Shown in pieces: positions 3,403-24,140 of a stretch of DNA of 64,000 nt. Made by a program: the position numbers and the translations under genes. This DNA comes from Caldithrix abyssi DSM 13497 (GTDB lineage: Bacteria > Electryoneota > AABM5-125-24 > Hatepunaeales > Hatepunaeaceae): NCBI GenBank assembly GCA_945865405.1, contig CAMBDS010000003.1, positions 12,374 through 76,373 of the forward strand, given 5' to 3'. Under the pieces are notes generated by a model. That model worked only from the letters and a program-made list of their open reading frames with translations. It was not told the origin of the DNA and did not search any database. The stretch's first letter is position 1. Each line of letters opens with the position of its first letter.

Positions 3403-4593
3403 TTACGCGATCACCTTTGTGACGAGTCCAGCGCCGACGGTACGACCGCCTTCACGAATAGCGAAGCGAACCTGCTCCTCCATCGCGATTGGGGCGATAA
3501 GCTCTACCTTGATATCGACGTTGTCACCGGGCATGACCATCTCACGACCTTCGGGAAGCTCCACCGAGCCAGTTACGTCCGTCGTGCGGAAGTAAAACTG
3601 CGGACGGTAGCCCTTGAAGAATGGCGTATGACGGCCGCCCTCTTCTTTCGAAAGGACGTAAATTCTGCCTTCAAACTTCGTGTGAGGTGTTATCGAACCG
3701 GTCGCGGCGATAACCTGTCCACGCTCAATCGCTTCCTTGTCAATTCCGCGAAGCAACAAACCACAGTTGTCACCGGCACGACCCTCGTCAAGCAACTTGC
3801 GGAACATCTCGATTCCGGTCACGACAGATTTCTTGGTCGCAACAAAACCGACAAGCTCAACTTCATCGCCAACCTTGATGATACCGCGCTCGATACGTCC
3901 GGTCGCAACTGTTCCACGACCCGTAATCGAAAATACGTCTTCAACCGGCATCAGGAACGGCTTCTCGGTAGCACGAACTGGCTCGGGAATGAACGTGTCG
4001 CAGGCATTCATCAGGTCCATGATGCACTGGTTGTACTTCGGGTCTTCCGGGTAGTTCATCGCGTTTAAGCCTGAACCGCGGATGATCGGTGTCGTGTCGC
4101 CGGGGAACTGATACTGGTTAAGAAGATCGCGCATCTCAAGCTCAACGAGATCAAGAAGCTCAGGGTCATCGACGAGATCGACTTTGTTCATGAAGATCAC
4201 AAGATGCGGCACACCGACCTGACGGGCGAGCAGGATATGCTCACGAGTCTGGGGCATCGGACCGTCGTCGGCGGAGACTACCACAATTGCTCCGTCCATC
4301 TGAGCTGCGCCGGTGACCATATTCTTGATATAGTCGGCATGCCCCGGGCAGTCAACGTGGGCGTAATGACGGTTCTCGGTCGAATACTCGATGTGGGCGG
4401 TGTTGATCGTTACGCCACGGGCGCGCTCTTCGGGAGCGTTATCGATGGAGTCGAACGAACGCTCGGCGGAGAGACCTTTCTTGGCCAACACTAACGTGAT
4501 CGCTGAGGTCAATGTCGTTTTGCCGTGATCTACGTGACCGATTGTGCCGATATTGACGTGCGGCTTACTCCGCACAAATTTTTCTTTTGCCAT
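3403..4593 (-). CDS. tufA: Elongation factor Tu (str-operon copy)
   Basis: 396 aa; [16 protein letters not shown] motifs; follows fusA. Confidence 0.99.
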
Positions 4594-17602: not shown

Positions 17603-17980
17603 CTACTTGAGTTCGACCACGCCGCCTGCTTCTTCAACCTTGGCTTTGATCGCCATGGCTTCGTCTTTGGAGACGGCTTCTTTGATTGCCTTCGGAGCGC
17701 CATCCACCAGGTCTTTGGCTTCCTTGAGGCCAAGTCCGGTAATTGCACGGACTTCCTTGATTACCTGAATCTTCTTCTCGCCGGAGCTGACGAGGATGAC
17801 GTTGAATTCCGTCTGCTCTTCAACTTCTTCGACCGGAGCGGCTGCGCCGCCCATAGCCATACCGCCACCCATCATCATGGGAGCTGCAGCTGTAACGCCG
17901 AATTTCTCTTCGAGGGCCTTCTTAAGTTCGACCAGCTCGAGGACTGTCATTTTCTCGATTGCTTCAATTATTGCTTGCAC
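17603..17980 (-). CDS. rplL: L7/L12 from an internal in-frame GTG start
   Basis: AGGAGG at 17985-17990, 4 nt upstream of GTG 17980; gives a normal-sized 125-aa L12. Confidence 0.75.
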
Positions 17981-18553
17981 GGATCCTCCTGAGGCGCTTA
18001 TTCCCGGTCGTCCCGTTGGATTGGTTCCCGCCATTTCGGCAACCTGCTCCACAACCGAGACGAACGAACGTAGAATTTCATTTAGTACATTCACGAACCC
18101 GCTGAGCGGGCCGACCATAGCTCCCACGACCTGTCCAATCAAGACTGAACGGGGTGGAATGTTCTTGAGTTGCTCTATTTGAGCCGGATCGTATAGGGTG
18201 CCTTCGATCAATCCACCCTTTATCGATGCCTTCTGCTTCTCTCTGATAAAATCGGAGAGAATCTTTATCGGCACAACTGGATCGTCGTATCCGATGAAAA
18301 ACCCGGTCGGTCCGGTAAGTATCTCATCGAGTCCTGTGTGACCCAGCCTTCCCAGCACCAGTGTGGCGAGGGTGTTCTTGGCTACCTTGAATTTAACCCG
18401 GCTTTTGAAGCAGGTTAACCGCAGTTGATCGATATCCGAGACGGGCAGACCGGTGAAGTCTGCCATCACGATGGATCGCGCCTCTTTGAGGACGCTTTCC
18501 AATTCATCAACCGCTGTGATTTTACCCGCGGCGGGTTTTGCTGCACGAATCAT
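17603..18553 (-). CDS. rplJ-rplL: Single 316-aa ORF: ribosomal protein L10 + linker + L7/L12
   Basis: aa 1-174 are L10 (KVAKNTL, GPT, KGGLIEG); aa 192-316 are L12 ([30 protein letters not shown]); no stop codon between them. Confidence 0.9.
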
Positions 18554-18703: not shown

Positions 18704-18961
18704 TCAGTAGACATCCTTTCGATGTCGCACTTTTACAACGATGATCTGATAAAGCTCATCAAAGATTTCATAGACGACTCGATAATCCCCCACCCTCACT
18801 CTATAAGTGTGAGAATGTCCTCTCAATTTCCGAACACCAACTGGTCGCGGCATCTGCCGAAGCCTTTCTATCGCTTCTTCTACTCGAAGAACGACAATAA
18901 GCGGCAATCCTCGAAGTTCTTTTGCAGCAGACTCACGAAAAGCAATCCCGTACTCAGCCAA
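18704..18961 (-). CDS. RelE/ParE-family type II toxin
   Basis: YRVRVGDYRVVYEI and RHRKDVY motifs; likely TTG start 18961 overlapping the upstream stop. Confidence 0.88.
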   Translation of the reverse strand: MAEYGIAFRESAAKELRGLPLIVVLRVEEAIERLRQMPRPVGVRKLRGHSHTYRVRVGDYRVVYEIFDELYQIIVVKVRHRKDVY

Positions 18962-19145
18962 TGTTGTTTTTTTTTGTTGCAATCTCCGCCTTCAGAACAG
19001 ACCATGGGATTAATGGTTCATCCTTCCGCAATTCACCAGTCAAACCGTCGCAAAAATCCTCAAACTCAACCCCCCATTTCTTCAGATCAACCAAGGCAGC
19101 TTTTCGCTTACCCTTCTCATCGTAAATAAAATCAATGCCTTTCAT
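18954..19145 (-). CDS. Probable cognate antitoxin (63 aa)
   Basis: Small ORF directly upstream of and overlapping the RelE toxin; ends with an E..IPW..LK motif typical of RelB-like partners. Confidence 0.65.
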   Translation of the reverse strand: MKGIDFIYDEKGKRKAALVDLKKWGVEFEDFCDGLTGELRKDEPLIPWSVLKAEIATKKNNIG

Positions 19146-21370: not shown

Positions 21371-21443
21371 CAGGCCCGGAGGGACTCGAACCCCCAACCC
21401 TCGGTTTTGGAGACCGATGCTCTACCAGTTGAGCTACGGACCT
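21371..21443 (-). tRNA. trpT: tRNA-Trp(CCA)
   Basis: Full cloverleaf; anticodon arm TCGGT-CT-CCA-AA-ACCGA; TTCGAGT T-loop; CCA end not encoded. Confidence 0.96.
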
Positions 21444-22364: not shown

Positions 22365-23555
22365 TTACGCGATCACCTTTGTGACGAGTCCAGCACCGAC
22401 GGTACGACCGCCTTCACGAATAGCGAAGCGAACCTGCTCCTCCATCGCGATTGGGGCGATAAGCTCTACCTTGATATCGACGTTGTCACCGGGCATGACC
22501 ATCTCACGACCTTCGGGAAGCTCCACCGATCCGGTCACGTCCGTCGTGCGGAAGTAAAACTGCGGACGGTAGCCCTTGAAGAACGGCGTATGACGACCGC
22601 CCTCTTCCTTCGAAAGGACGTAGATACGACCCTCAAACTTCGTGTGAGGTGTGATCGATCCGGTCGCGGCGATAACCTGACCACGCTCAATCGCTTCCTT
22701 GTCGATACCGCGAAGCAACAAACCACAGTTGTCACCTGCCCGACCTTCGTCAAGCAACTTGCGGAACATCTCGATACCGGTCACGACAGACTTCTTCGTC
22801 GCAACAAATCCGACAAGCTCAACTTCGTCGCCAACCTTGATGATACCGCGCTCGATACGTCCGGTCGCAACTGTTCCGCGACCCGTAATCGAGAAAACAT
22901 CCTCGACCGGCATCAGAAAAGGCTTCTCGGTGGCGCGAACAGGCTCAGGAATAAAGGTGTCGCAGGCGTTCATCAGGTCCATGATGCACTGATTGTACTT
23001 CGGGTCTTCCGGGTAGTTCATCGCGTTTAAGCCTGAACCGCGGATGATCGGAGTCGTGTCACCGGGAAACTGATACTGATTCAGAAGATCGCGCATCTCA
23101 AGCTCGACGAGATCCAAAAGTTCAGGATCATCGACGAGGTCAACCTTGTTCATAAAGATCACAAGATGCGGTACACCGACCTGACGCGCGAGAAGGATAT
23201 GCTCACGAGTCTGCGGCATCGGGCCGTCGTCGGCGGAGACTACCACAATTGCGCCATCCATCTGGGCTGCACCGGTAACCATATTCTTGATATAGTCGGC
23301 ATGCCCCGGACAGTCAACGTGCGCGTAGTGACGATTCTCGGTCGAATACTCGATATGGGCTGTGTTAATCGTTACGCCACGGGCGCGCTCTTCGGGTGCG
23401 TTATCAATAGAGTCGAACGAACGCTCGGCGGAGAGACCTTTCTTGGCCAACACTAACGTGATCGCTGAGGTCAATGTCGTTTTGCCGTGATCTACGTGAC
23501 CGATTGTGCCGATATTGACGTGCGGCTTACTCCGCACAAATTTTTCTTTTGCCAT
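22365..23555 (-). CDS. tufB: Elongation factor Tu (tRNA-linked copy)
   Basis: Protein reads identical to 3403-4593; preceded by Thr-Tyr-Gly-Thr tRNAs. Confidence 0.99.
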
Positions 23556-23622: not shown

Positions 23623-23695
<73 letters not shown>

Positions 23696-23817
23696 AATAG
23701 AGAGTCGGTCTCCCTCACCTATGTTCTGATTACGAGCGCAAAAAACCTTCCCTCCAGCTTAAATCGTGCAATCGAAGCCGGACGGCGGGCTCTGGTGAAA
23801 TTCATCACCCAATCACG

Positions 23818-23891
23818 AGCGGGAGACGGGATTCGGACCCGCGACCCTCAGCTTGGAAGGCTGATGCTCTAGCCAACTGAGCTACTCCCGC
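23818..23891 (-). tRNA. glyT: tRNA-Gly(TCC)
   Basis: Anticodon arm TCAGC-CT-TCC-AA-GCTGA; T-loop reads TCCGAAT (non-canonical). Confidence 0.93.
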
Positions 23892-23949
23892 TGAAAAACC
23901 AATGCCAGTGGGACTAAAGAGCGTCCCGCGTACTTTTATGGGGTCGGCG

Positions 23950-24032
23950 TGGCGAGAGGTGGTTTCGAACCACCGAAGGCCTAAACCAACAGATTTACAG
24001 TCTGTCCCCTTTGACCGCTCGGGAATCTCGCC
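23950..24032 (-). tRNA. tyrU: tRNA-Tyr(GTA)
   Basis: Anticodon arm ACAGA-CT-GTA-AA-TCTGT; long variable arm. Confidence 0.95.
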
Positions 24033-24067
24033 AGATAATTAGTAACGGCCATCGTAACTTAAGGCAG

Positions 24068-24140
24068 AGCCGGCGATGGGACTCGAACCCGCGACCTGCT
24101 GATTACAAATCAGCTGCTCTACCAGCTGAGCTACGCCGGC
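24068..24140 (-). tRNA. thrU: tRNA-Thr(TGT)
   Basis: Anticodon arm GCTGA-TT-TGT-AA-TCAGC. Confidence 0.96.

Follow-up and report, generated by a model that had tools for sequence, protein, structure and literature searches.

An in-frame fusion of the ribosomal stalk genes rplJ and rplL, with a conserved putative internal start for free L12, in a class of the phylum Candidatus Electryoneota

The window, i.e., the whole 64,000-nt stretch of DNA analyzed, carries the ribosomal stalk genes rplJ (uL10) and rplL (bL12) in the context nusG-rplK-rplA-rplJ-rplL-rpoB-rpoC, as in the canonical operon. In contrast to that operon, however, there is no stop between the two genes: they form a single 316-codon ORF without internal stop, in which the former spacer is translated as a linker (Table 1). 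The original prediction had described L10 and L12 as sharing one stop-free frame, and the ORF listing, Pfam, and NCBIfam all bear this out. Pfam places Ribosomal_L10 (PF00466) at aa 9 to 102 (E = 2e-23), Ribosomal_L12_N (PF16320) at aa 192 to 238, and Ribosomal_L12 (PF00542) at aa 250 to 316 (E = 4.4e-28). The NCBIfam L10 equivalog NF000955 matches aa 11 to 173 over positions 3 to 165 of its 168 (149.6 bits versus a cutoff of 85), and the L12 equivalog TIGR00855 matches aa 192 to 316 (147.2 bits versus a cutoff of 84.4). The fused ORF hence contains a complete L10 and a complete L12. The L10 part is a bacterial uL10 by both its equivalog match and its alpha8 helix but, in all 16 genomes of the class, is not a separate polypeptide with its own stop; the L12 part has the N-terminal domain, hinge, and C-terminal domain of bL12 (PF16320, PF00542, TIGR00855, and AF2).

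Table 1. Features of the fused rplJ-rplL gene (positions are those of the window)
Feature	Position	Strand	Basis or remark
Fused rplJ (uL10) + rplL (bL12) ORF	17603..18553	-	In-frame fusion; stop codon 17603-17605
Start ATG of the L10-L12 chain	18551..18553	-	A/T-rich leader, no Shine-Dalgarno (SD) upstream
uL10 globular rRNA-binding domain, aa 1-132	18158..18553	-	PF00466; NF000955 above cutoff; AF2 pLDDT 83-89
uL10 C-terminal helix alpha8, aa 133-177, docking rail for L12 N-terminal domain dimers	18023..18157	-	AF2 helix 135-177; T. maritima L10 alignment
Predicted disordered linker, aa 178-191	17981..18022	-	AF2 pLDDT <50; from end of L10 homology to L12 start of unfused relatives
Out-of-frame (+1) TAA within linker	17998..18000	-	+1 TAA in 14/18 sequences
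AGGAGG Shine-Dalgarno, read as S-G-G in linker	17985..17990	-	GGAG core in 18/18 sequences
In-frame GTG, codon 192, putative start of free 125-aa bL12	17978..17980	-	Start codon in 18/18 sequences
bL12 N-terminal dimerization/L10-binding domain, aa 192-218	17900..17980	-	PF16320; AF2 helices 192-200 and 204-218
bL12 flexible hinge, Ala/Gly/Met-rich, aa 219-247	17813..17899	-	AF2 pLDDT <50; only indel site in 16-genome alignment
bL12 C-terminal factor-binding domain, aa 248-316	17606..17812	-	PF00542; aligns to E. coli and T. maritima L7/L12 structures

On the minus strand, the junction reads GGA CGA CCG GGA ATA AGC GCC TCA GGA GGA TCC GTG CAA GCA ATA ATT. The 17-aa linker initially proposed is found at aa 175 to 191, and the AGGAGG lies, as had been noted, 4 nt before an in-frame GTG, the intervening bases being ATCC. 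The AF2 prediction, a monomer model with a 114-sequence alignment, lays the chain out as a confident L10 globular domain, the alpha8 helix, a disordered stretch (aa 178 to 191), the L12 N-terminal helices, a second disordered stretch (aa 219 to 247), and the C-terminal domain. In this monomer, the tethered L12 N-terminal domain has a pLDDT of 55 to 58 and shows no confident docking onto L10. The most conserved segment of the fused protein is aa 192 to 222, with 86% mean pairwise identity.

A toxin-antitoxin-like pair lies between rplA and the fused gene (18704-19145, minus strand), where a 92-aa ParE-family toxin (PF05016, E = 4.7e-11) overlaps an upstream 63-aa ORF without a Pfam match. One relative (locus L107) has a different small cassette, DUF2204-like, in the same gap, and because the two cassettes differ, the rplA-rplJ gap may be an insertion hotspot. 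The window also carries two tuf (EF-Tu) copies about 19 kb apart (3403-4593 and 22365-23555, both minus strand) that encode 100% identical proteins; two copies are likewise present in three other genomes of the class. An Rfam scan of the whole window found no L10 leader or other RNA element, the matches being tRNAs only. The five tRNA genes (21371-21443 and 23623-24140, minus strand), four of which cluster beside the second tuf copy, form an ordinary arrangement.

The original prediction had cautioned that removal of one G at about 17998 to 18007 would end L10 at GRPE-stop and that a single-base error could therefore have created the fusion. The tract in question, CCGGGAATAA (18007..17998), does contain a +1-frame TAA (18000..17998), and with one G fewer L10 would end in ...GRPE-TAA, 16 nt upstream of the GTG, as expected if one extra G masked the true L10 stop of an ordinary rplJ-stop-rplL pair. 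This explanation is, however, refuted by the comparative data. A six-frame search found the frame free of stops over residues 1 to 316 in 16/16 species genomes from 14 genera (60 to 89% amino acid identity), and order- and class-level searches added no genome to these 16, every one of which is fused. All members of the class are metagenome-assembled genomes (MAGs), and those sampled were assembled independently. Since the same frame is open in every one of them, its openness is far beyond chance. At the suspect spot, several relatives use different codons and lack a run of Gs, e.g., CCG AGC TTA (L004) or GAT GGG CTT (L006), and the linker residues are kept through synonymous changes. The search of related genomes that had been proposed as a check thus extends the fusion to the whole class and contradicts the single-base error.

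Beyond these genomes, about 60 further metagenome proteins with 56 to 93% identity at 100% query coverage have the same three-domain architecture and are likewise fused, and among the 1.84 billion cluster representatives of a library, about 30 entries, 297 to 332 aa long, match the query from end to end in one stretch. The same library also yielded proteins of 593 to 1066 aa with five to seven separate L12 C-terminal domain matches (P0121, P0124, P0135, P0137, P0190, and P0216); these look like multicopy bL12 C-terminal domain repeat proteins.

The fusion is ancient and present in every sampled genome of the class, and we regard it as genuine with near certainty. Elsewhere in the phylum, rplJ and rplL are separate; in Candidatus Tariuqbacter, which belongs to another class of the phylum, a stop codon precedes L12. 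Among 80 named-genome loci, the genes were separate in 71 and fused in nine, all nine from the window's clade, including Calditrichaeota bacterium AABM5.125.24 and Candidatus Hatepunaea meridiana, the latter assigned by NCBI taxonomy to the phylum Candidatus Electryoneota in the FCB group. Each of the 16 genomes has a single rplJ-rplL locus, and no second L10 or L12 gene was found in any of them, the window's own genome included. A source of free protein in a second rplL or rplJ gene elsewhere is hence ruled out for these genomes.

The linker between L10 and L12 comprises 14 to 18 residues and shows no indels in the codon alignment of the 16 genes, where all indels fall in the L12 hinge. Its codon entropy is higher at the third position (1.29) than at the first (0.91) and second (0.80). 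All four CGN codons occur at R182, while G184 is read from GGA, GGC, or GGG and A187 from GCA, GCC, or GCT. This codon-level pattern indicates that the linker is translated and kept in frame.

An out-of-frame stop recurs within the linker: among 18 sequences (the 16 class genomes plus two metagenome sequences with L or M at position 192), 14 have the +1 TAA, three instead have a TAG in the other frame, and the last lacks any such stop. The TAA at 17998-18000 may be a relic of the ancestral L10 stop. Its recurrence at the same place in 14/18 sequences would also be expected if programmed frameshifting to it freed L10 from a fraction of the ribosomes. We reject this possibility as scarcely credible: the three sequences with a TAG in the other frame and the one with no stop do not fit it, no conserved slippery motif lies upstream of the TAA, and the I/L-S/T residues encoded there account well enough for the nucleotides. 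In addition, the SD is downstream of the TAA and therefore cannot serve as a prfB-type stimulator.

The other conserved element of the linker is the predicted initiation site for L12. Every fused gene of the class has the pattern GGA GG(A/T/C) or GGA GAA, three more bases, and a start codon, so that in 18/18 sequences the GGAG core and the start codon are spaced identically. All 18 have GGA at codon 189, a codon that accounts for 28% of Gly in the rest of these genes. Of the 57 columns with an invariant amino acid and at least 4-fold degeneracy, G189 alone has zero codon entropy in the 16 genomes (mean, 1.64 bits). Codon 192 is GTG in 15 sequences, ATG in two, and TTG in one, GTG making up 19% of Val codons elsewhere. 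A prediction from this pattern could be tested with the two metagenome proteins with L or M at residue 192, whose DNA proved to have TTG and ATG, respectively. Codon 192 is, as far as these sequences go, always a bacterial start codon even where the residue changes. The conservation of the G-G-S residues could partly reflect a need for linker flexibility, but flexibility alone is insufficient because it leaves the invariant synonymous site at codon 189 unexplained.

In the unfused relatives within the phylum, L12 begins at the aligned GTG and is preceded by a GGAG-type motif, whereas no such motif was found in the 40 nt before the L10 ATG in any of the 16 genomes. The window as a whole has a Bacteroidota-like initiation style with few SD-led exceptions, rplL keeping a strong SD and rplJ having none; by admittedly crude start assignments, a 5-nt SD precedes the first start codon in three of its 45 long ORFs. 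A search of the window's MAG for the conserved 16S 3′-end motif (anti-SD) gave no match.

The RNA from -30 to +20 of the internal start folds more weakly than the gene's average 50-nt window in 17/18 sequences (mean, -6.6 versus -10.1 kcal/mol), although the sequences are related and neither this count nor the 18/18 counts above represent independent trials. For the internal start of the window itself, folding is at least as strong in 198 of 200 shuffled sequences. Codon adaptation gave a mixed outcome. An L12 half that is translated more often should match the codon usage of highly expressed genes more closely. This is the case in the window's genome (98th percentile for L12, 28th for L10), but when the weights are taken from tuf alone, L12 lies above L10 in just 7/10 genomes. 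The signals for a bL12 start of its own are present and conserved at the sequence level, and the site is predicted to be used. The internal-start idea raised three expectations, all of which held: conservation of the GGAG core together with the start codon, a location exactly where unfused relatives begin L12, and the lack of a further L12 gene in the 16 genomes. In our assessment, the internal start very probably gives rise to free L12.

Distant full-length matches to the fused protein include one already flagged by database annotators, [quoted passage not shown] (AP022671.1), as well as other Nitrospira/Nitrospirales and Chloroflexi proteins. In the GTDB class of KM1, the genes are fused in 24/81 sampled genomes, several of them on megabase contigs. 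These genes share with the window's the domain architecture, a linker of about 14 to 20 aa, and an in-frame SD-like motif followed by ATG. The Nitrospira gene keeps AAA GGA GAA GGG GAC ATG, with the ATG invariant in 12 genomes; the one Chloroflexi locus examined keeps CAG GAG GGT ACG GGA ATG; and the fused gene of a soil group keeps GTA GGA GAC ACC GCA ATG. They differ from the window's fusion in origin. The window's linker is only 6 to 17% identical to the linkers of the other fused groups (12% to that of KM1), and its L12 part is 56 to 65% identical to theirs (56% to KM1) as opposed to 65 to 75% to the unfused L12 of its own phylum. Because the linkers are unrelated and the L12 part is closer to the unfused L12 of the same phylum, we consider the fusions to be of independent origin. 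The same observations rule out horizontal spread of one fused gene between phyla. The window's gene and the Nitrospira-type fused L10-L7/L12 accordingly do not share common descent as fusions, and their identical architecture arose by convergence.

At three loci from unfused members of KM1's GTDB class (L138, L139, and L141), nothing but one TAA and a spacer free of stops parts rplJ from an rplL in the same frame, an arrangement that is likely the state before fusion. With a single in-frame TAA between the genes, one substitution would suffice for fusion. The spacer of such unfused relatives (e.g., GAA GGA GAT TTC GAA ATG) corresponds to K-G-E-G-D-M of the fused clade, which suggests that fusion can come about by losing one stop codon. 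At L137 (genome G082), also in KM1's class, an additional stop-free rplJ-rplL frame has a different linker, NKSNAQEGKEEAMGKLSQEEL, and may represent yet another independent fusion within that class.

In the L10(L12)n stalk of bacteria, a base protein holds non-covalently bound, exchangeable L12 dimers that recruit EF-Tu, EF-G, IF2, and RF3. The L10 of T. maritima reportedly binds three such dimers (Diaconu et al. 2005). Like the canonical L10(L12)4-6 stalks of E. coli and T. maritima, the fused gene encodes a complete L10 with an alpha8 of Thermotoga length and a complete L12; residues 111 to 173 of its L10 align without gaps to residues 114 to 176 of the 180 of T. maritima L10 (PDB 1ZAV chain A). 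According to a passage in PMC3299993, each L12 dimer takes about 10 residues from the L10 C terminus. With an alpha8 of this length and no other L12 gene, the stalk most likely consists of one fused L10-L12 chain plus about five free L12 copies, the number of dimers bound by the window's alpha8 being read from helix length only. If there are six binding places, one covalent L12, and no other L12 gene, the remaining L12 copies must come from the internal start. With no stop between the genes, every L10 made carries one L12.

The mechanism we propose begins with the loss of the rplJ stop codon in the common ancestor of the class (Candidatus Electryoneota, FCB group; formerly AABM5-125-24), whereby the short rplJ-rplL spacer, including the L12 SD, would have become the translated disordered linker of 14 to 18 residues. 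Ribosomes initiating at the SD-less rplJ ATG would encounter no termination signal before the rplL stop and would make the 316-aa L10-linker-L12 chain, whereas those initiating at the retained AGGAGG-N4-GTG would make an ordinary free L12 of 125 aa. A free L12 would serve as partner of the tethered L12 N-terminal domain, probably at the most distal alpha8 site; a disordered tether of 14 to 18 residues could span about 50 to 60 Å, enough to reach it. This overall explanation, i.e., stop loss, two products from one ORF, and a stalk of fused chain plus free L12, is in our view quite probable.

Two other ways of building the stalk from this locus have to be weighed against it. In the first, only the fused protein would be made, without internal initiation, and the stalk would have a single tethered L12 or the fused chains would pair mutually. 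The apparent rarity of SD-led initiation in the window's organism is what speaks for it, yet the SD core and the start codon are conserved at synonymous sites, alpha8 keeps its full three-dimer length with 66% mean pairwise identity, and it is as a dimer that the N-terminal domain of L12 binds L10. PMC3299993 further describes E. coli as slowed in initiation and elongation when L12 dimers are lost. We therefore deem this alternative very improbable.

In the second, the fused chain would be a precursor: a protease would cut the linker, and the mature stalk would be a canonical non-covalent L10(L12)6, the extra L12 coming from the internal start. The linker is predicted by AF2 to be disordered and accessible, and R182, G184, L/I185, S/T186, and A187 are more conserved than a passive tether needs, such that a protease could recognize them. 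For such a cut, however, neither a protease nor a cleavage motif is known, and as the Nitrospira and Chloroflexota linkers are unrelated (6 to 17% identity), each lineage would need its own solution. Processing of this kind hence seems unlikely, if less so than the absence of internal initiation. That the fused chain sits uncleaved in the ribosome is the reading we lean toward, by a narrow preference.

In-frame internal initiation is the source of two isoforms per ORF in IF2 alpha/beta (infB), ClpB, and CheA long/short. The fused rplJ-rplL gene would share with these systems an internal SD and in-frame start within one ORF and, as predicted here, a long and a short product. It differs in that the short product is a complete ancestral ribosomal protein needed in several-fold excess over the long one and in that the two products are predicted to assemble together. 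With the archaeal/eukaryotic P0, in turn, the fused protein shares a design in which the base protein has its own factor-recruiting element beside separately bound dimers. The element in P0, however, is a short acidic tail shared with P1/P2, whereas the window's protein carries a whole bL12 and the added part is not homologous. Archaeal L10 NCBIfam models score the fused protein at 18 to 37 bits against cutoffs of 331 to 547, which sets it apart from the P0 type.

The fused L10-L12 with retained L12 SD and start codon is a novel form of bacterial stalk, convergent with the unpublished Nitrospira and Chloroflexota cases. No description of a natural bacterial L10-L12 fusion, whether from Electryoneota, Nitrospira, or Chloroflexota, was found in the literature searched, outside of which most subscription journals lay; none is described in the genome paper on Nitrospira KM1, in work from 2026 on rplJ/rplL codon usage, or in work from 2025 on L12 copy number.

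A broader reading, to which we give even chances, is that there is no free L10 in the class, nor in the Nitrospira clade and some Chloroflexota, and that every ribosome there contains the uncleaved chain, so that one arm for factor recruitment is permanently tethered and the exchangeable L12 copies are odd in number. This would amount to convergence on the P0 design from at least three origins, kept by selection. If so, selection might act, for example, via the seeding of stalk assembly or by guaranteeing at least one L12 per ribosome in slow-growing cells; the fusion may be adaptive or merely tolerated. Work on stalk stoichiometry assumes separate subunits. If a covalent chain is fixed across whole clades in three or more phyla, it would offer a natural experiment on why L12 is multicopy and exchangeable and on how the stalk assembles, and also on a 1:5 expression ratio set inside one ORF by an SD-less outer start and a strong SD-led inner one. 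Since a convergent version occurs in cultured Nitrospira, the model is directly testable. The fused genes are currently annotated just as “L7/L12,” “L10,” or “hypothetical,” and marker pipelines that expect single-copy rplJ and rplL may mis-score the genomes that carry them.
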